A DNA stretch of 63,868 nt, filler included. It is 12 parts of 12 records of this genome, joined end to end, with 100 filler letters (N's around TTAATTAATTAA, not from the genome) between each part and the next. Parts side by side here need not be neighbours in the genome. Positions count along the whole stretch, not along the records: positions 12,374 to 17,182 come from SRR15195285_1310; 11 more parts are not named here. One strand, written 5' to 3'. The notes below the pieces were generated by a model. It did no database searches. It was not told the DNA's origin and saw only the letters and a program-made list of their open reading frames with translations. A program made the position numbers and the translations under genes. Shown in pieces: positions 5,832 through 43,996 of the stretch. Position 1 is the first letter of the stretch. Every line of letters begins with the position of its first letter.

Positions 5832-8675
5832 ATGGCACCATCTCTTCGCGCGATCTCTGCTGCGGCTGGCTTTCAGACACCGGACGACCTGTGCCAGTAC
5901 CCCTGCTCTGGTCCCTGCCGGGTTGATGCTACGCGCGAGGAGCTGCGCCGCCTCCGGCTGCTTCCAGAGATCAGCGCTGTGGTCTTGACCGTCAACGGCG
6001 GCAGCGACTCGTACGACAAGCTCTTCACGGAGGTCAAGCAGAAGGGCCCCGAGGGCAAGGCTGTGGCGGTGTACGAGGCCAACTACGAAGCCCTCGGGGC
6101 GATTGCCGCCGCGCTCCAGGGCGACCAGTCGCAAGGAGGCATCTACGCTGAGCTGGCACAGGATGTAGGCAGCTTGGCTGACCCGGCCAGCTTCGTGGCA
6201 AACCTTGAGTGCTGTGGCTGCTGCTCCGAGTCCGGGTTCGGAGCGCGCCCTGAAGCCAAGTCTGGCCTCTGGCAGCTTGTCGAGGCCTGTCTGAGCCGCG
6301 GCAGCTTCGTCATGGCATCTGACTTCTCGCTTAAGGCAATCATCAAGGAATGGAAGCAAGAACATCTCGGGCCACTACCGTTTGTGCAACTCCCAGGTGG
6401 GTGCAACACTTCCTTCGACTTGGGCTTTGACAGCGCAGATCTGATTACCGCGCCTTCAGCACAGCTGAATGTGGTCGGACAGCTCTGCGCAGACGGCAAG
6501 GCTGCGTCGCGCGCCATGGGAGGAACGATCGTCTATGCTATCGACAAAGTAGGTGCTGAAGCTGCAGGTGCAGCTGGCGTAACGCTGCAGGTGCTGACCG
6601 TCGTCGAGAAGGTGGACGGCATGAATACCTCTACAGATCCACGCTTCAAGCACCACCTCTGCACCGCAGGCGGTAGCTGTGGCGTAGCCGGCCACGTGTT
6701 ACTGACCTATCCGTCTGGTGGTCGCCTACTGACCTCGATGGGACACTGGATCGAGCTCACGAAGCTTCATGGATGCACGGAGGAATCTGTGCTCCAGGCA
6801 GCCGAGCGCCGCGGGGCGGCCTACTCGCGTGCTATCCGGGAAGAGCTCGACAGCTGCGCGACCCAATCAGAGCGCGACCGAGCGCTGCAACGGTGTGGGG
6901 CACAGTTGGTGCAGAATGCAGCGCCGTGCATGGTTCGCAACAGCGCGGGTGGGCTGTCCTATGAAGTAGACGACTCCACCAAGCTGCTGCGGTACCTCAT
7001 TCTCGGCTCAGAGGGTACTTACTACGTCCAGCCAAAGGAGCACACCGCTGCAAATCTTACTGCACTCCTGCGGATGCTGAAGGCAGGCAAAGGTGAGGAA
7101 GCAGTCTCCATCATCAAGGCTGTCAGCACGGAGGGACGAGCCGCACGCCAGACACCAACCTTGCTGGCGCTGGCGATGTGCTGCCAGCTGGGCGATCAAG
7201 CCACGAAGACCGCGGCGTATGCTGCCCTGCCAGTGGTGTGTCGGATTCCGACACATCTGATGGAATTTCTGGACAAGTCGGAAGCTGTAGCCAAAACGAA
7301 AGAAGGAGGTGGAAGCACCGGTTGGGGCCGAGCCCACCGTCGTGCAATCTCTTGCTGGTACAACGAGTTCCGCACCTCAAACGCCAAGGCGTTGGCTGAG
7401 GCAGTGACCAAGTACCAAAAGCGTCAGGGTTGGAGCCATCTGGACGCATTGCGGCTCTGCCACGTGAGGCCGTCGACGTCCGCCCATGCTGTGGTTTTTC
7501 GTTACATCGCCAAGGGTATAACTGCCGCAGCGGAGGCTGTGGAGCTGACAGCACCCGCAACTCCACCCAGAGATTCACAGCCACCGGCTGAAACAGCGGG
7601 AACGAAGAAACGTGTCCTCGAGGATTGTCCAGCTGCTTCTGCGTCGTCCGTTCTGGAGTATCTCAATGCTGTGGAGGAGATAAAGGCACTGAGCCCCACG
7701 AAGGATGCTCTAGACAGTGCAGACGCGACTGTGGATCGGTGCACTGAGCTGATAGAGACGCATAACCTCGTGCGTGAGCATGTACCCACGCATTTGCTGG
7801 GCTCCAAGAAAGTGTGGAAGTCTCTGCTCAAGAGGATGCCGATGACCGCGCTTCTACGCTCCCTCGCAAAGATCACCGCGTTGGGTGTACTGGATGACGT
7901 GTCAGCCGTCCATTCAATCGTGAAGCGACTTACGGATCCTGACGCAGTCGCCAAAGCACGGCTGCACCCGCTGTCAGTGTTGACTGCACACCGCACGTAT
8001 TCGTCTGGACAAGGCGACAAGGGAAGTCTTACCTGGACGCCCAACGCCGAGATATGTACAGCGCTGGAAAAAACTTTCACGCTGGCGTTTGCCACGGTCA
8101 GGCCAGCCGGCAAGCGGTTCCTGCTGGCGATTGACATATCTGAGTCGATGTCTGCACCAATCTCCGGTGGCGGCGGTGCCACGCTGAGCTGCGCAGAGGC
8201 AGCAGCTGTAATGGCTCTGATTCTCGCCAAGACTGAGCCTTCCTGCACTGTAATGGCGTTCGCGGAGACCTTCGTCCCAATGCCAATCAGCCCCGAGATG
8301 TCACTTGAGCAGGTGCTCGGTGCAGCAGAGAAGCTGCGTCTTACTGTTCAACCAGCTGGGACTGACTGCTCAGTGCCGATGCAGTGGGCGTTGCGGGAGC
8401 ACCTTCTCCCACAGCAGGTGGCAGGCCCGACGAGCTACGACTGCTTCGTTGTCTTTACAGACAACGAGACGTGGTCAGGAGAAATGCAGCCGGCAGATGC
8501 TCTGCGCCGCTACCGTGACGCCAGCGGAGTTGCGGATGCTCGGCTCGTGACCGTAGGCTTGGCGAGCAACGACTTCAGTATTGCTGACCCAGAGGACACC
8601 GGCATGCTGGATGTGGTTGGGTTCGACACCAGCGCACCCGATGTCATCGCAAACTTCGCCGCCGGACGCATCTGA
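5832..8675 (+). CDS. RO60: Ro60 (TROVE + vWA) RNA-binding protein with an extra N-terminal ~366-aa domain
   Basis: Ro60 motifs VRNSAGG..YEVDD..LLRYLILGSEG, GWGRAHRRAI, KYQKRQGWSHLDALRLCH, LVREHVPT, MPMTALLRSL, MIDAS DISES, FTDNETW, ADPEDTGMLDVVGFD. Confidence 0.93.
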   Translation: MAPSLRAISAAAGFQTPDDLCQYPCSGPCRVDATREELRRLRLLPEISAVVLTVNGGSDSYDKLFTEVKQKGPEGKAVAVYEANYEALGAIAAALQGDQSQGGIYAELAQDVGSLADPASFVANLECCGCCSESGFGARPEAKSGLWQLVEACLSRGSFVMASDFSLKAIIKEWKQEHLGPLPFVQLPGGCNTSFDLGFDSADLITAPSAQLNVVGQLCADGKAASRAMGGTIVYAIDKVGAEAAGAAGVTLQVLTVVEKVDGMNTSTDPRFKHHLCTAGGSCGVAGHVLLTYPSGGRLLTSMGHWIELTKLHGCTEESVLQAAERRGAAYSRAIREELDSCATQSERDRALQRCGAQLVQNAAPCMVRNSAGGLSYEVDDSTKLLRYLILGSEGTYYVQPKEHTAANLTALLRMLKAGKGEEAVSIIKAVSTEGRAARQTPTLLALAMCCQLGDQATKTAAYAALPVVCRIPTHLMEFLDKSEAVAKTKEGGGSTGWGRAHRRAISCWYNEFRTSNAKALAEAVTKYQKRQGWSHLDALRLCHVRPSTSAHAVVFRYIAKGITAAAEAVELTAPATPPRDSQPPAETAGTKKRVLEDCPAASASSVLEYLNAVEEIKALSPTKDALDSADATVDRCTELIETHNLVREHVPTHLLGSKKVWKSLLKRMPMTALLRSLAKITALGVLDDVSAVHSIVKRLTDPDAVAKARLHPLSVLTAHRTYSSGQGDKGSLTWTPNAEICTALEKTFTLAFATVRPAGKRFLLAIDISESMSAPISGGGGATLSCAEAAAVMALILAKTEPSCTVMAFAETFVPMPISPEMSLEQVLGAAEKLRLTVQPAGTDCSVPMQWALREHLLPQQVAGPTSYDCFVVFTDNETWSGEMQPADALRRYRDASGVADARLVTVGLASNDFSIADPEDTGMLDVVGFDTSAPDVIANFAAGRI

Positions 8676-11952: not shown

Positions 11953-12431
11953 CCCAGCAGCGGCAGTCCGCAGCGCCAGATTGCCCCGGCAGCGCACTGT
12001 GTGTGCAGCTGATCCGTCCTCCCAGTTTTCAGGTCTCTGTGATGGAGCCGCTCGCCGCTGCAGTCAATCCCCAAGTCGCTCTAAAATCACAGTGTGCCTG
12101 AGCGGGTGTGGCATAGCCCACTAAGCCTGTCTACCGTCCTACGTCATACAGATACACAGTGTACGCAGTGTACGCGGGGCGGCTCGGCTGGCTGTGTGTG
12201 TTTGCGCAACCCTCTTCACCAGCAGCGCCAGCAGCAGCAGCAGCGCCAGCAGCGCCAGCAGCGCCAGCAGCAGNNNNNNNNNNNNNNNNNNNNNNNNNNN
12301 NNNNNNNNNNNNNNNNNTTAATTAATTAANNNNNNNNNNNNNNNNNNNNNNNNNNNNNNNNNNNNNNNNNNNNTCAAGGGCCTTGGGTCTGATCGACGCA
12401 CCGCGGGCACACATCAGTAGTGCGAGGGCGG

Positions 12432-15098
12432 ATGATGGTGCTGCCGGCGACGCTAAGTACGCTCGTGGTCGGCGTAGTCGCCAGTAGCAGCGGCAGTGAT
12501 TCGCGAGCGATGCTGAGTCTTTCACCAGCCCCATCGCTAGCGCTAGTCTACAGCGATCGGTCCTTGAATACCACGGCGTCCATCATTGAGCGTGTCGTCT
12601 CGCGCAAGAGCGGCTGTGGCATCGTCAAGGAGCCGGCTAAGAGCAAGCTGACGCTTACGCTGGAGATCGACTCAGACCTAGGGCCCGAGGCGTACTCTGC
12701 TACTTTCGACGGGGAGCGCTCCGCGACAGTGCGTGGCGGCGATCGCGCGGGGGTTACCTATGGTGCCGGGGCGTTCCTGCGCTCAGCGCAATTTACACCA
12801 GTCGGGCTGATTCCACCCCAGCACGCACCACCCTCGCCCGCACCACCGCCGCCGCCGCCACCGATTCCCATTGGCAGGGAGTGGTGGGCTGGCGAAGCAA
12901 ATCGCTCATATGCCTACGGAGCGTGTGGTGGCAACGACCCGCAGGGCTGCCCACAGGTGCCGCTGCTTGGCCTTGTCGACAGTCTCGAAGAGTGCAAACA
13001 GCTATGCGTCAACTCCAACATCACCCACTGCACATCCTGCGGCTGGATTCCCAATGACGCCCAGTGGTCGCGTCGCTGCTACGGCCGGCATGATGGAGTT
13101 TGGAACCCTAGCCCCGTCCAGGTCCCAGGCGCAGCCTGGGCACGACGTTTCAAGATCCCCTTGCCGCCGGCTCCGCCTCCGCCGCTGCCTCCCGCACCTG
13201 GACCGCCACCGACGATGCAGCCCTGGACAGCGCGCGGCGCACCAGCAGTACCGGGTTCTTTCCGTGGCTTGTATTTTGCCACGCATTTTGGCAACTTCTT
13301 TGCCAATGCGCCGGCTACTGCGATCCATGAGTACCTCGAAGATATGGCTCTGTGGGGCGCAAACACATTAGTAGTCATCGCGGAGCCGGCCAAGTTTGAG
13401 AACATCACCATGCTCGGGCCGTTGCTTGATCGCAACGCGCAGATTGGCGCATTTGCTCAATCGATTGGCTTCAAAGTTGGCTGGATATTCAACAACGAAG
13501 GCTTCCAAGATGCCTATCACCAGGATGAGCATGGAAATTACGTATCAAATATCTCCTTTACATATCCTCAGCAAGAAGGCGGTGACTTTGGCACTCCAAC
13601 GATGCCACAGTTCCTAATCTGCCCGCACAATGGTCTCGATTACCTGAAAAATGGGGTTTGGGGTCCCATCTTGCGGCGTGTCGCAGCCAACGGTCTGCAT
13701 CTGGACCACTTGATTGCCTGGCCATATGATTGGGGTGGCTGCGGTTGTCAACAGGACTGGCCATGGGGGGCTGTTGGGTTTCCTCGCTTTTCGACAGACA
13801 TTCTCACCATGGCTACAAATGAATGGGGACACGCAGGTGTCGAGGGGACGCTTTCAACCTGGCACTTCCAAATGTCCACCGCAAAACCTCCGGCGGATGA
13901 GTATGGTGGCTTGGACAAATGGCTTCGTTCACACAACGACGGCGGTGTCGCCGCGCACGCACACGCGCACACGCAGACACAGCCACAGCCTGAGGAGCAC
14001 GTTCGCCACGCAGACACAGCTGGAGGATACGGTGGCCTTGGCTACAGCCGACTCTTGCCACGTGATCACAACGTAGTACCCGAATATCAAGCTGCTTCCA
14101 CCGCAAATTGGACTCACACTATGAGCGCTGTACCCGGAGGCTTCCAGTGGATTGCAGCACACGGGAAGGTCGGCGGTTTGCCGACGCTTGACTTCCCTGA
14201 GTACTCAATGTTCAGTGGGTGCCCTTGGGGCGGATATGGGGCAAATCCAGTCCCACAGACGATGCAGACGGACTGGGATACGCACGGCGACATCATTAGT
14301 GGAGGAATGCCGTACTCGGAAGGCATCTACCTTGATATGAACCAGGTCATGCGCCAACAGCAGTACTGGTCCGGACGACTCACGAACGAGACTCTTCTAG
14401 AGTACAATCGGTACGAGTTTGGATGGGCAGCCGCGGAGAATATCACACAAGCGGTTCGCATCCTTGAGACCACCCTGGGGTGGGAGGCTGGGCCGTTTCC
14501 AAAAGGGAAGGATCTTGCAAAGAACGGCAGCAGCCAGTACGCGTTTGCACTTCTGAATGATGCGATGCTCAGTATGACCGAATCAGCAAAAGCCAGCTGG
14601 CGCTGGCGCATTCTGTACCTGCGTGCGCAAATTGATGCTTTATCGTTCAGGGGTAAAGCTACGAATGCAGCCCTGTTGAACGCTTCGTTCGACGAGCTGG
14701 CCAAGATTTACCACGTGGAGAGCAACTGCTGCCATCCAGACAGCCCGGCCGACTGTACGGATGCGATTGATACACAAGCAAACTGCACGATGAAAGTTCT
14801 GCGCCCTGGCTTCAGCGGAAAATCTCCAGCAGAGTGCTCTGACGTCCGGTTAAAAAAAGACGTAGCTACACTCGGTCGGTCGCCGAGTGGCGTGCCACTT
14901 TTCAGTTGGCGCTACAAGTCCACATTATCGCTATCGATGCCGAGTGGCTTCGAGCCATGGCAGCGATTCGTTGGAACAACAGCGCAGGCGTTGCTGTCAA
15001 TAGGCCGAGGAGACGCTGTGTTGCTGAACGCTTGTGGCGGATACCATGCTGTTGACTACTCGCGCATCGACGTGGACTTCGGGCCGGTGTTGCAATGA
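12432..15098 (+). CDS. Secreted glycoside-hydrolase-like protein with a Cys-rich (PAN/apple-like) insert and a C-terminal Peptidase S74 chaperone domain
   Basis: Signal peptide; hexosaminidase domain-2-like LGPEAYS..VRGGDRAGVTYGAGAFLR; barrel motifs FRGLYFATHFGNF, EDMALWGAN, WPYDWGGCGC, GGMPYSEGIY; tail SDVRLKKDV..GTTAQ..AVDYSRI. Confidence 0.8.
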   Translation: MMVLPATLSTLVVGVVASSSGSDSRAMLSLSPAPSLALVYSDRSLNTTASIIERVVSRKSGCGIVKEPAKSKLTLTLEIDSDLGPEAYSATFDGERSATVRGGDRAGVTYGAGAFLRSAQFTPVGLIPPQHAPPSPAPPPPPPPIPIGREWWAGEANRSYAYGACGGNDPQGCPQVPLLGLVDSLEECKQLCVNSNITHCTSCGWIPNDAQWSRRCYGRHDGVWNPSPVQVPGAAWARRFKIPLPPAPPPPLPPAPGPPPTMQPWTARGAPAVPGSFRGLYFATHFGNFFANAPATAIHEYLEDMALWGANTLVVIAEPAKFENITMLGPLLDRNAQIGAFAQSIGFKVGWIFNNEGFQDAYHQDEHGNYVSNISFTYPQQEGGDFGTPTMPQFLICPHNGLDYLKNGVWGPILRRVAANGLHLDHLIAWPYDWGGCGCQQDWPWGAVGFPRFSTDILTMATNEWGHAGVEGTLSTWHFQMSTAKPPADEYGGLDKWLRSHNDGGVAAHAHAHTQTQPQPEEHVRHADTAGGYGGLGYSRLLPRDHNVVPEYQAASTANWTHTMSAVPGGFQWIAAHGKVGGLPTLDFPEYSMFSGCPWGGYGANPVPQTMQTDWDTHGDIISGGMPYSEGIYLDMNQVMRQQQYWSGRLTNETLLEYNRYEFGWAAAENITQAVRILETTLGWEAGPFPKGKDLAKNGSSQYAFALLNDAMLSMTESAKASWRWRILYLRAQIDALSFRGKATNAALLNASFDELAKIYHVESNCCHPDSPADCTDAIDTQANCTMKVLRPGFSGKSPAECSDVRLKKDVATLGRSPSGVPLFSWRYKSTLSLSMPSGFEPWQRFVGTTAQALLSIGRGDAVLLNACGGYHAVDYSRIDVDFGPVLQ

Positions 15099-15220
15099 TC
15101 GTTGGGAGGAAAAACTGAGGCTTCATTGAATCACTTTTGGTACCTGGCTGAGTAAAAAAAAGAGGCGGACGACTGCGAGTCGATCGCCTAAGTGCCCGAG
15201 CCATGCTGTGCAGTGTAATA

Positions 15221-16620
15221 TCAGGCTTCTGTTTCGAAGACAACATCCGCCATTGCCAGTGGGTTTGGCCCCAATCTTGTCGCACCAGTGGGCGCGCCTT
15301 CATCGCGCATTGCAAGCTTCTGCACCGCACCGAGCGCGTACGCCCTTTCAACTGCAGTACCCAGGCCAAGCTCACGCCAACCTTCATGTCCAAGGTGTTC
15401 AAGCGCCGATCCAGCGACGCTGTGCTGGGCCACGGCATCCGCCGCCTTGGTCAGCGCCGCCTGCCCGGGCGCTGGTGCTGTTTCAGCCTCGCGCTGCAAA
15501 AATGCGGACACCTGCGCGCATGTCCACCTCTGAAACATTTGCACCGACTGCATGGATGTGGCGCGTCGCGCCAATTTTCGCCTGCGAACAATCTCGGCCA
15601 TCGCTTCATTTTTCCAGAAAAAAGCACCCTCAGGTTTTCCGAGCGAGCTTGGCTTCAGCGTAGCTTCCTCTGGGCTAAGTACTATACCCAGGCTCAAATG
15701 GACTAACAGGTTGAACAGACCTCCCATGACGACAACCATCTTCACTTGGCTTTTTAGGAACCACAAAAATACAATCGCACCGAACAACACGCTTCCGGCT
15801 AGATCGAACCGCTTATACGCATACAGAGGGACGGAAAACATCATCAGCGTCGCTCCGTAGTTGAAAAGCAGGCAGTTTCGGCCGAGAAACCCACTCAAGG
15901 TTCGAAAGTACTCTTTCCCGGCCGCGGTGGTCAAGAACAGCTGCAGATTCATCATGGCCACGCAGCAGACAACGTGGACTGACATTGCCAGGGCCAGCAC
16001 GCAGAAGAGAACCTGGTCAGCGACTGTGTGCACTGTGCAGTCCCACCGCGGGATCTGCTCAAACAGTGGGCCCTCAGACAAGTCCGCACTGCCGTCGCCT
16101 TCAAGGCACGCGGCGTGCGGTGACGGGTCTAGGCTGGCCTCCTGTGCGAGACCGGCAAAGCAGAAGGCAGCGAAGAGTGCCGCCATCTGCAAGTGTGTCT
16201 CCGCTTGCACATGAAGCTCGTGCGCCGTTTCGGGGTTGTTGACCCAGTTGGCTGACATCGTCGTAAACTTGAAGTCCAGGCCAAACGACTTGATGTTATT
16301 CGCTTGGTCGTCGAGCAGGTGGCCCGAGTGCTTCAAAATGTACGCACGCACAGCGGCGTCGCTGCGGACGTATGATGCGGCGACACTGAGACTGCGAGTG
16401 TCGTGGCGCTGCGGCGCCTCGATGCGGCTCACTGTGGCTGCTGTCCAACTCGACAGATAGTCTATCTGTGGCTCTATGGGGGATGGAGGGCTCGCTGTCT
16501 GACACACCTGGGAGAGTCGCCGTCGTTTTCGCCGCTCTGGCCGGCGTCGGTTGCATCGCTGGCTGCTGCGCCGGTCCGGAGCTGTTGTTGAGGAGGACTG
16601 GGCTGGGTGCTCTTCATCAT
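15221..16620 (-). CDS. Multi-TM (Orai/PGG-like) membrane protein with C-terminal SAM domain; start uncertain
   Basis: Four to five hydrophobic helices; SAM pattern WTCAQVSAFL..VAGSALEHL..WRELGL. Confidence 0.65.
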
Positions 16621-40000: not shown

Positions 40001-43000
40001 GACCAATGCAGATGAGTGAGCTCTATTGATTGCACTGTAATTAGTTATTTGCATCATCCTTGCTCTAGTGCAATCAACTGAGCGTTTGCAACTACAGCTG
40101 GTTGCAACAGGTAGCGTAGACTTACGTGTCATCTGTACAGACATCGTAGCAGTCAGGTGAAGGTTTCGTGAAAAAGATGACGTTGAGCACCATGCCTAAT
40201 GCAGCAAGTCATACTAGGTCAGGACATCAAGTCGCAACCGCAGGCAACTTATTCAAAATTTCAAGCAGATATTGAGTGTAGTTTTACCTATCAAGATTCC
40301 CAACCACAGGACGACAAATCTGTGAGATTTGAGATATGGATCTCCTCTGTAACCGAGTACGATGGCAGCCAGCGGCCACTGAATGCGAAGGTCGATGGCA
40401 AACTTGTGCAATATAGAAACGTTGTCCAAAGAAAGCAGCTGTCGCTTTTGCGCAAACCTAGACGACCGAAGCTCATACTGCTCTCGAAGCAGTTCTGCTG
40501 TTGATACCTTGCGCACCAGATGTTGATAAATCTTGATGGCGACGGCCATCGATACAAGCGATAGTAATGTAGTGATACAGGCTATGATGGCTGAAACAGG
40601 ATTCCTTTTTAACCACTCCTTGTCGAGAATCGCTTCCACATCCATTCGATTGAAGCTCACTGGCGGCCCAAGCATAGCAGCAAAATTTGTCAAGTGATTG
40701 AATGCACAATGCAGCGAATTATTTGTGACATTGACGAACTCGCCATCCCGTCGCCACTCCCGCAGCTCTTCGTCCCAGTAAACGCACAGCTCTGATACTG
40801 TTCGCACGTACTTCTCCCTTAGTTCTTCGCGCATACAGGCGCACGCTTCTGGCCAACGGTGGCAGTCTTCTGCTCCGCCACGAATGCCTGGACATCCAAT
40901 CATTGTTCCGTCTTCTTTCAATTTTGAGTTAGCACACGAGTCAGTCCGCCGTGGGCACACAGTCATTTTCTCCTCTTCTTGCCTTCGCAGCTGCTCGGCC
41001 TGTTGTTGTAAAGCCATCGAGAAGTTTGAATCGTTGAGATATGAACTACACCCTGATGCTGGTGATGAACCTGACATTGCCAGCAGCACCATTTCCTCTT
41101 CCAAACTTGTCCTGTTCCAAGAAAATGAAATGAACTTGTCGACTTCCATCAACGACTTTCTGGCCAGGTTCTTCGAGAAATTGAGCTCGCGGCTTGTGTT
41201 GACTAATGGGATGCTGATAATGAACGGCTCCGATAGGTTGGCTATCTCCAGTTTTCGTGCACCACTACTTTGGAGCACTCGTCGTCCTCCCACTGGTGTA
41301 TTGATGTACTTGAAGTCCACAGAGAGCAGCGATGACGCAAGCTGGGAGCCAGTCCCGTCGCTCAGCATTTCGGGTGCAGCGAAAAGCGGCCCAAGGCCTG
41401 AGTACTGGATAACTTGAGAACTGATCGCCTGCCCGGCGGCCACTGTCAAAGCTGCGCTAGGTACACGGACGAGACCAGCGAGAGTGCGCTGATCAAACTG
41501 CTCAGGGGAGTCTCGCTGCACCCAAAGGCCGAAGTTGTCGGTCCTAAGCAATGTTTCTGCCTCACCATTAACCATCTGATTGACAACTCCGTCTCCCAAA
41601 TTATCGATAGCACCTGCTATGACCATGCCTCGGTCGATACCATCACCACGATTGTCGCTTTGTTGTGTGCGGCGTCGCGAAGTGATATCATTTTGGATGG
41701 ACATCGCCATCAATAGATTAGAAACGGCTCCAGCAATTCCCTCGACTGGAAATGTGCCGGTGGATAGCGCTCCAGCTTCAGCCAACGATTTCACCAGTGT
41801 TGTTGCGGTGTCTGTCGCAGCAACAGTCAACTCTACGGGCGAAGAAGTGATTAGCTCCAAGCTGCTGCCCAGCCGACCAATTGCATCTGTTGCCAGAGCA
41901 AGAGGAGCCACGCCTGAGTCGGTGTCAGGAGTCAAGACATGTGCCGCCAACGCGTCGACAAGAAGCTCTCGAGACTCTCGTATCTCGTCAGTTACGGTGG
42001 TGTCTTCTCTCGACGACAGTGCGCCAGCAAGCGCATCGACAAGCTGTGCAGTCTGCGAGGCGTCTCCAACACTTTCTGCAGCACTCAGAAGTCGTCGAGT
42101 AGAGTTTTGTGTCAGTTCTGCTTGCATTGGAAGGACTCTGACAACCGTTGAAGCAGAGCTGAGACCATCCAATGCGTCCAGGATGCTCACATGCACGGAA
42201 TATGCATGATCCGTGGATGCTGGCCCTTGTGGTAGTACAGCGCGTGTTAAGGGCGAGGCCCGAAAGTCCTGGAGATATCGATCGTTGCCAAGAAGTGTGT
42301 ATCCAAAGCGATAGCGAAATCCGTCAGTTTCATCTTCATCTGTCCATCCCTCTGTGCTGAGCGAAAAGACCGTCTCGATTGCTCGACCCTCTGTGGGTAA
42401 CACGGTGAGCAAACCACCTGAAGGAGGACGGTTGGTTTCTATCAGGAGCTCCTGGAAGCCAATCGCTCCTGTGGATGACTCAGCAGTCAGCACAAACGCG
42501 TAGCTTTGCCCTGGTGTGAGCACATCAGGCCGTACAACGAGGTTGCTGTCCACTGAGACACTAGCGCTGACGCTCGCGTATATATATCCATTTAATGGTG
42601 TGGAAACCATATCAGGCGACAGCGAGAACGGTAGACCAGACTCCAATTCAGCAGACCATCGCCATGCATAGAGATCTTCATGGACAGAGTTTGGTGCGCT
42701 TATTGTGCCAATTATGCTGAATTTCTCGTTGCTGTTAATCCTGCGTTGCATAGTTCGCGCGATATTCACTGTAGCAGCACCTGCAGCTATTGTGACGACG
42801 GCTGTTGCAGATACTGGCATTTTCCCTGTTTTTTCAACTGTCACCACAAACTGCAACGGCTCTTGCCCATCAGAAGCAGAAGCTAGCTGTGCGCTTGTAG
42901 CCTCGAGCACTGGTGCTGTCAGGTTCCAGCCAGATAACGAGCAAGCAACGCCAGCAGCTGTGCATGACCAAGTGTAGCTAAGCAAACCATATGTCAGTCG

Positions 43001-43996
43001 TTCGTCTACACTGAGGTCTGGATCGTGGCTTTCAGATGCATCGAGGCGGAGGTCTTGACTCCCAGAGATCGCACGATTGTTTCCGCCGAGGATTGTCACA
43101 AACAGTGGCTGTGAAGCCACTGTTATTACTACATCCGCCGAGGCGATTTGCCCACCTTCATCGACGGATACCCGTAGTGTCGTAGTTCCTGGTCTCAGTG
43201 TATATGGTGGCATTTCAAATACTGATGTATCCTGGGCAAAATCTAACAACTCAGTATCTCCATCGACTGCGCTCCAGCGGTACGTCAACGACGAGGACAC
43301 AACAGAGGTGTCACAGAGCTGTACCGGGGTGGCAATTGCTGCCACCCGTGTGTGCTGTGAGGCCAGGGTTTGCATTTGAGCAGGTTCAACCACGACTTGT
43401 AGTGCAGGAACACAGCACCCATCCCCAGGTTGGCAGTCCTGTGCAGTTGGACACGGAATGCCAGTACCTGACTGTGGTTTATATTCGCTCCATGTGCGCA
43501 CTCCTGCAGCTTCACACGATGAAGAGCAAGAGGACCATTGGCCTGCACAATCAGTATTCAGAGGGCAAAGATCATCGCCCGGCTGGCACTGGGTCACTGA
43601 AGGGCACGCTCTGCCGTGCCCGCTCTGAGCCACAGCCTCCGACCAAACACGGCCACAATCAGGCGTGCAGGTGCTCCACATACCCACACAGTCAATGTCA
43701 AGTGGGCAGCTACCACCACCTGGCTGACAATCTAATGCTGGCGGGCACACCAGGCCATCGCCGCTCTGAGCGACAATCTGCGTCCACACACGATCCGAAG
43801 CTGGTTCACAGGCATTTGTACAGAGTGACCAAGTTCCAGCACAATCCACATCAACGACGGTATCGCAGCACAGCTCATTATCAGTGCCAGATGCGTCACA
43901 CGTCTCAGCCACGCACAGAGCTGCAGCAGCGTTGGCGTCCACGACCCAGCCGTCCGCACATGTAAATGTCGAGCACGCTGCACGAGCCACACAGCT
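37073..43996 (-). CDS. Polycystin-1-like receptor: TSP1-like repeats, REJ, GAIN/GPS, TM helices and a large EF-hand array; 5' truncated
   Basis: DC.G.WS.C repeats; LDASESHDPD; NRPPSGG; GWTDED; GPS CVYWD..W..G..CAFNHLTNFA; ORFs 40253-43990 and 37073-39901 join in frame through a short exon at ~40126-40195 with GT-AG introns. Confidence 0.85.

Follow-up and report, generated by a model that had tools for sequence, protein, structure and literature searches.

A short-form Peptidase_S74 (intramolecular chaperone) domain at the C-terminus of a probably secreted, glycoside hydrolase-like protein from a marine eukaryote

The stretch of DNA considered here (the window: 63,868 nucleotides, assembled from 12 parts of 12 records of one genome, with 100 filler letters between parts) contains, in the part taken from record SRR15195285_1310, a gene for an 887-residue protein in which a glycoside hydrolase (GH)-like enzyme is followed by a C-terminal tail of 86 residues (Table 1). 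This tail truly belongs to the Peptidase_S74 superfamily, in a short form, alongside the intramolecular chaperone (ICA) domains, while the enzyme that carries it is probably a secreted glycoprotein of a marine eukaryote, judging from its sequence. S74 domains are assembly aids of trimeric viral fibres, and the one well-studied cellular eukaryotic case, to our knowledge, is MYRF. A preliminary description of the window had proposed a Peptidase_S74/ICA identity for the tail on the strength of its Ser-Lys motif, and this identity is borne out by 249 relatives, by a profile comparison with the PDB, and by matches obtained with BFVD, VIA-align and the ESM Atlas. In what follows we weigh the evidence for the tail, for the enzyme, and for what the two may do together.

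The end of the open reading frame (ORF), SDVRLKKDVATLGRSPSGVPLFSWRYK...FVGTTAQALL...DAV...GYHAVDYSRIDVDFGPVLQ, was quoted exactly and in frame by that description (nt 14838-15095). The tail opens with SDVRLK (14838-14855; Ser codon 14838-14840) and has a computed mass of 9.33 kDa; the window contains no second tail of the [ST]Dx[RK]xK type. Searched exhaustively with phmmer, a set of 1.84 billion representatives yielded 249 relatives of the 86-residue query at E<=1e-3, 14 of them at E<=1e-10. All but a few of the 150 matches listed span the whole tail, at the extreme C-terminus of proteins that range from 65 to 1785 residues; SDxRxK is present in 124 of these matches and the looser [STC]Dx[RKAQ]xK in 131, the remainder being mainly fragments that start past the motif, or variants. 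When 112 sequences were scanned with Pfam, namely 110 of the 150 listed matches (hand-picked, and mostly longer proteins) together with P0003 and the tail of the window, 91 gave a Peptidase_S74 match at E<=0.01, the best at 2.5e-12. Two relatives, P0126 (E 8.3e-7 against the tail) and P0157 (E 1.0e-5), exceed the cut-off of the S74 model with 30.3 and 27.7 bits, respectively, and P0043, which is 64% identical to the tail (E 1.3e-18), carries a precomputed PF13884 annotation. Across the 35 rows of tail alignment A2, the invariant residues are the S, D, R and K of the motif, a G, an A, a Q, an L and one further D; the GTTAQ-type variant seen in the window is common to 19 of 154 proteins examined.

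A profile built from the tail family, compared with the PDB, retrieved exactly four sequences at E<=1, all of them ICA domains with SDxRxK aligned: the 8jov tail fibre (E 0.002), the GA-1 neck appendage chaperone 3gud (0.0031), the S16-type long tail fibre 6f45 (0.43) and MYRF, 7dc3 (0.5). SDVRLK aligns with SDERLK of 8jov and SDERHK of 3gud, and the chain of the released chaperone 3gud starts at the very Ser that is aligned to the Ser of the window. Two other searches yielded little: a word-indexed search of longer proteins, in which the tail served as query, gave seven matches without useful names, and eleven marginal matches to named phages (E 1e-3, 34% identity), all from one Brucella phage group, were set aside because the aligned part overruns the annotated end of a structural-protein gene.

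The predicted structure points the same way. An AlphaFold2 (AF2) model of the tail, with a predicted local distance difference test score (pLDDT) of 86.6, matched BFVD entries named 'Intramolecular chaperone auto-processing domain' and 'Endosialidase chaperone' (E 4e-5 to 1e-2, TMq 0.58-0.72, prob 1.00), which derive from phages and from algal giant viruses (Megaviridae, Ostreococcus viruses). In a VIA-align comparison with 48,161 solved chains the MyRF ICA domain 7dc3 ranked first (Z 3.6, root-mean-square deviation 2.3, 60 aligned residues, 25% identity), with 3gw6 (Z 2.4) and 3gud (Z 2.1) at lower ranks. Taken as models, the BFVD matches and the top rank of 7dc3 thus assign an ICA fold to the tail. 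As a lead only, S74 also appears in 29 of the 30 nearest ESM Atlas clusters, with scores of 0.90-0.91.

Several observations speak against this assignment and have to be set beside it. The Pfam model PF13884 reaches 18.6 bits on the tail alone (E 0.0023, profile positions 1-52 of 58) and 13 bits on the whole protein, below the gathering score of 22; the HMMER check that had been proposed for the last 86 residues therefore gave the right place and register and fell short in score. Two relatives, P0003 (20.0 bits) and P0006 (16.9 bits), stay under the same cut-off. As a single-sequence query against the PDB the tail returned only noise, a Foldseek comparison of its model with the PDB gave nothing at E<=0.001, and a Z of 3.6 falls in the range that VIA-align reads as a possibly common arrangement. 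Lastly, P0045, a protein of 76 residues with an LRPG connector and the second half of a tail, lacks the SDxRLK segment, and may be either a dyad-less variant or a fragment that was called wrongly. The evidence from this one tail is weak when taken alone; it is the evidence from the family that settles the membership of the tail in S74.

Could the tail be a chance motif, or an artefact of assembly or gene modelling that joins two genes? The sub-threshold Pfam score would fit such a reading, as would the RNA-library (X4) contigs, which lie on both sides of the junction at 14838 with none bridging it, bearing in mind that such libraries can contain DNA. The reading is refuted, however, both by the 249 homologues and by eight independent proteins that keep the junction between enzyme and tail (P0003, P0006, P0043, P0044, P0052, P0158, P0192 and P0193; 58-80% identical to the window over aligned columns), with the shared pattern ...CCHP.SP.DCTD..DTQ.NCT..LRPG......EC|SD.RLK. 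Since these eight relatives hold the same junction in independent assemblies, the tail is not the product of mis-assembly, an outcome that the preliminary description had named as fatal to its proposal. Moreover, the ORF is continuous, and a DNA contig of one public run, possibly from the source sample, covers 14020-15400 and thus the junction itself. We regard an artefact or chance origin as extremely improbable. The stretch is present in 19 public marine runs from 15 studies, and the 887-residue product is matched by an identical public protein (P0002); the frame stays open upstream as far as a GTG at 12420 on the + strand. Apart from cross-matches in Pro-rich repeats, no splice-like joints were seen in the gene among the public contigs. 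The joints at 12863-13165/13167, whose sides of 20-21 letters lie in such repeats, probably come from foreign contigs and were rejected.

What kind of enzyme does the tail follow? The N-terminal domain matches Glyco_hydro_20b at E 1.3e-5, with 26.4 bits against a cut-off of 26.1, and the barrel region (residues ~273-765) has 41 homologues at E<=1e-3, mostly bacterial or metagenomic proteins of ~520-740 residues. The AF2 model of the enzyme (pLDDT 75.3, predicted template modelling score 0.81) shows a barrel with a helical bundle, and Foldseek places it nearest to GH84 and GH20 structures in the PDB, including BtGH84, human OGA and the GH20 enzyme GcnA (E 6e-7 to 7e-6, prob 1.00, TMq 0.39-0.48, 8-11% identity). 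On the models, then, the three-domain fold of GH20, GH84 and GH89 is present, with an alpha/beta N-domain, a TIM barrel and a helical bundle, and the likeness to this hexosaminidase architecture extends to NAGLU barrels, which stand beside unnamed bacterial clusters among the Atlas neighbours of the barrel. There are also differences: neither Pfam nor NCBIfam gave a match to a catalytic-domain model of GH20, GH84, GH89 or any other named GH family, an NCBIfam scan of the enzyme and two bacterial relatives assigned no family, a profile of the enzyme family aligned only its N-domain and first barrel strands with PDB entries (GH20, GH84, GH67), and the nearest relatives are unnamed bacterial proteins. 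The 'hydrolase barrel' of the preliminary description is therefore right at the level of the modelled fold, whereas no named GH family can be claimed.

Five acidic residues are invariant in barrel alignment A3 (D165, E222, E362 in YSEG, D367 and E411); the end of barrel strand 4 carries a catalytic acid pair in GH20 (D-E) and in GH84 (D-D). The barrel family, which belongs mainly to Verrucomicrobiota, Planctomycetota and their relatives in the Atlas, also holds an invariant block, WPYD.GGCGC...PWG, and no Pfam or NCBIfam model spans the barrel. The bacterial relatives inspected have no tail, ending soon after an ...IYHAE motif, and they lack the Pro-rich and PAN-like insert between N-domain and barrel. 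Within the barrel, a low-complexity insert rich in His, Thr and Gln (AAHAHAHTQTQPQPEEHVRHAD; 13930-14010, pLDDT <50) is likewise missing from the bacterial relatives inspected. In P0004 and P0005, GH18-like and GH79 domains lie upstream of the barrel, and the available sequences stop inside it, short of where a tail would come.

Table 1. Features of the gene and of its predicted product, in window coordinates
Feature	Position	Strand	Basis or remark
Whole gene	12435..15098	+	single-exon uninterrupted ORF, 887 residues from ATG (MVLPATL...), stop 15096-15098
Signal-peptide-like hydrophobic N-terminus (MVLPATLSTLVVGVVASSSG...)	12435..12500	+	hydropathy; putative
GH20b-like N-terminal alpha/beta domain (P0001 residues 38-118)	12531..12773	+	Pfam Glyco_hydro_20b
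Two Pro-rich linkers around a Cys-rich PAN/apple-like module	12807..13235	+	PAN_1 sub-threshold, E 0.11
(beta/alpha)8 barrel and C-terminal helical bundle, unnamed GH-like family	13236..14714	+	homologues, AF2, Foldseek
Cys-rich connector (CCHPDSPADCTD...NCT...LRPG...EC)	14715..14837	+	conserved in 8 relatives; ends in Cys before the predicted scissile bond
Predicted cleavage site, Cys codon (14835-14837) / Ser codon	14835..14840	+	prediction from 3gud chain start and MyRF/endoNF dyad
Short-form Peptidase_S74/ICA domain, 86 residues	14838..15095	+	homology, profile, fold
Lys of the Ser-Lys dyad (S+5)	14853..14855	+	sequence; invariant in tail alignments A1 and A2

The enzyme is probably exported. 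Its start, in which the first 10 Kyte-Doolittle windows of 11 residues have means of 1.6-2.15, is putatively a signal peptide by hydropathy, as the preliminary description had it, and no further transmembrane-like segment was found by hydropathy in the whole protein beyond the N-terminus. The 887 residues hold 11 N-x-S/T sequons and 18 Cys. It is because of the hydrophobic start, the lack of any other transmembrane-like segment, the sequons and the Cys that we read the enzyme as probably secreted.

The mechanism of the tail can be approached from its characterised relatives. In MyRF the residues S587 and K592, equivalent to S911 and K916 of the phage endosialidase endoNF, are indispensable for cleavage (PMC8326128). 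By analogy, we lean towards the view that the short form is a self-sufficient cleaving unit, cutting at Cys|Ser, because the dyad is kept and because the whole short-form family, viral members included, shares a common length. Under this proposal the tail would fold in the secretory pathway, and its Ser-Lys dyad would sever the chain after the Cys encoded at 14835-14837, just before the Ser that follows, leaving a mature enzyme plus a fragment of 9.3 kDa; where relatives have an internal tail, two enzymes would be parted by such a cut. The phage ICA domains (endoNF, 3gw6; GA-1 gp12, 3gud) resemble the tail in SDxRxK with Ser and Lys five apart, a C-terminal place, and a glycan-degrading partner in the endosialidase tailspikes. 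MYRF and Dictyostelium MrfA (ICA domain 7dc3, the top structural match among solved chains) in turn share the setting, i.e. a phage-type Ser-Lys domain in a cellular eukaryotic protein, and, as in the relatives P0006 and P0043, their domain is internal.

Set against self-sufficient cleavage are the parts of the known machinery that the tail does without. Cleavage of MyRF needs a trimeric ICA domain, and its trimerisation is attributed mainly to a coiled coil formed by alpha4 (N670-K705), a helix that also places K671 near the reaction centre, whilst cleavage of endoNF involves a residue from the triple beta-helix that lies upstream (PMC8326128). The tail model has no long C-terminal helix; its only helix of at least four residues spans 58-63, the chain ends 86 residues past the Ser, and the alignment with 7dc3 ends at residue 675, near the start of alpha4. 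A C-terminal helix fit for a triple coiled coil, as in characterised ICA domains, is thus absent from the modelled tail, and so is an upstream triple beta-helix or fibrous stalk, the model having a barrel and helical bundle there instead. The 37 residues just upstream of the tail are Cys-rich, with pLDDT <50 and neither beta-helix nor coiled coil in the model, and no fibre or collagen family was matched by Pfam in the enzyme protein. Compared with the phage domains, the 86 residues of the window tail stand against 129 in the 3gud chain and 133 in T5 pb1 (PMC4690869), the partner is a globular barrel with a Cys-rich linker and not a triple beta-helix, and the gene is cellular and eukaryotic. 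MYRF, for its part, is a transcription factor of the endoplasmic reticulum membrane with a beta-helical stalk and the alpha4 coiled coil (PMC8326128), whereas the partner here is probably a secreted enzyme with neither, and the sequence similarity is marginal (the profile E of 0.5). Considering that there is no stalk, and that the tail stops where the trimer-forming helix begins, we infer cleavage before the Ser, while the trimerisation put forward in the preliminary description may or may not go with it; that description is thus supported in part, its self-processing and trimerisation remaining proposals.

These same gaps would suit a different reading, in which the tail derives from S74 but no longer cleaves, for want of coiled coil and stalk, and serves as a permanent C-terminal module, e.g. 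for oligomerisation, surface attachment or glycan binding. Cleavage in MyRF depends on alpha4-driven trimerisation (PMC8326128), and the tail may remain attached either way: a Cys at -1 (codon 14835-14837) co-occurs with a Cys in a tail loop before GYY, which in the window is encoded near 15033-15035, in 13 of 15 tails against 13 of 119 without the -1 Cys (134 tails; the Fisher value of 2e-9 is inflated, as only ~4 independent lineages are involved). On the other hand, the S, D, R and K of the motif, invariant in all 35 tails and kept in eight of nine aligned relatives, would not be expected to persist without catalysis, and a family that includes viral members of the same short length is probably a working unit. 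We therefore consider a non-cleaving tail unlikely, though a reading to be taken seriously, and keep to the self-cleaving unit as the preferred account. The sequence pattern suggests that a disulfide between the two Cys positions or tethers the tail, and in the enzyme lineage such a bond might keep the two pieces linked after a cut.

In some relatives the tail is not at the end of its protein. P0006 and P0196 have a PAN-like module and a GH29 alpha-L-fucosidase after an S74 domain that is internal, and in P0043 too the chain continues past the tail. The order of domains suggests that internal tails act as a self-cleaving separator between enzymes, and P0006 and P0196 may be self-splitting two-enzyme polyproteins. 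In P0102 the order is reversed, with an S74 domain near the N-terminus (residues 13-90) and then ~460 residues with a hydrophobic segment near the C-terminus. Elsewhere in the family, the Pfam scan found ubiquitin, EF-hand, fn3, a papain-type protease, collagen, Hint and Arf as partner domains; most partners have no Pfam domain, and the proteins may be cellular or viral, the ten family members looked up having only metagenome sources. The idea of a portable tag, raised in the preliminary description, is backed in general terms by these many unrelated partners. Ubiquitin-S74 fusions (P0069, P0124 and P0138, with the fragments P0122 and P0186) have the form ...LVLRLRG|SDxRLK, in which the S74 Ser comes directly after the C-terminus of ubiquitin, and Pfam matched ubiquitin in 3 of the 112 sequences scanned; if self-cleaving, the fusions would free a ubiquitin-like moiety without a deubiquitinase.

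Where does the tail come from, and is the gene that of a virus? Fibre proteins of polinton-like viruses integrated into the genomes of protists are reported to carry a C-terminal S74 ubiquitously (PMC12220804), and S74 domains occur in giant viruses of algae (PMC13659346, PMC13620141), also within giant-virus genomic islands (PMC13620141). Among 201 pattern-matched stretches from a collection of viral contigs, 151 code for a tail relative, from phage-sized contigs as well as giant-virus metagenome-assembled genomes. The gene could then be part of an integrated virus, whether a polinton-like virus or a giant-virus insert, and its product a viral fibre or depolymerase. We hold this to be very unlikely. 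The larger ORFs around the gene are of cellular type, the relatives of the barrel are cellular bacterial proteins, and the G+C content around the gene (0.55-0.57) is even across the region and equals the window mean (0.566). The viral S74 fibres and adhesins do have the same short type of tail, in viral contigs as in BFVD entries, but they are large modular proteins with laminin_G_3, collagen and adenovirus-fibre domains, whereas the protein of the window is a hydrolase-like barrel in a host neighbourhood. In a FastTree phylogeny of 214 tails, 80 of them viral, the nine enzyme tails group with six tails of different upstream sequence (15 tips, support 74), and a 19-tip group around the enzyme tails (SH-like support 94) holds 0 of the 80 viral tails, a result to be read in the light of 74 columns and poor overall resolution.

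The neighbours of the gene in the window are ordinary eukaryotic genes, in agreement with the eukaryotic host proposed at the outset. Their larger ORFs encode IQ-motif, Ro60/TROVE, ion-channel, DegT aminotransferase, EF-hand, REJ/GPS and P450 proteins, among them a Ro60/TROVE protein with a vWA domain (5832-8672, + strand) and a polycystin/adhesion-receptor-like protein of 1245 residues with REJ and GPS (40256-43990, - strand). Long intron-free ORFs are typical of the window, which also holds 22 runs of 44 N, paired between the larger ORFs.

How much of this is new? The S74 domain, its chemistry and the pairing of a glycan-degrading enzyme with an S74 tail are already known, the last from its phage archetype. 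Nor is the presence of S74 in protists by itself new, since domain databases already list eukaryotic S74 proteins. What is apparently new is the occurrence in a cellular eukaryotic protein, together with a globular partner that lacks a stalk, the short form, and the use of the domain as an internal 'separator'. In our full-text search of main articles, no cellular eukaryotic enzyme was described with an S74 domain; only MYRF/MrfA and viral fibre cases came up, which fits the earlier statement that this architecture had not been described.

To conclude, a tail with neither stalk nor coiled coil on a globular enzyme prompts one to ask what the smallest self-cleaving unit might be, and whether eukaryotes use it as a built-in device for maturation or for the splitting of polyproteins; the barrel that precedes it represents a sizeable unnamed GH-like family in its own right. 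As a wider and decidedly tentative proposal, which we think doubtful as it stands but worth putting forward, a lineage of marine eukaryotes could have adopted a short S74 module of viral origin as a general processing tag that needs no protease, without the stalk and perhaps without the coiled-coil trimer. Such a tag would cut itself off the C-termini of secreted enzymes, split multi-enzyme polyproteins and perhaps process other precursors such as the ubiquitin-S74 fusions. Were the 86-residue form to cleave alone, it would make a compact tag that removes itself, which is of practical interest, and it would also document the capture of a domain from virus to host in marine plankton.

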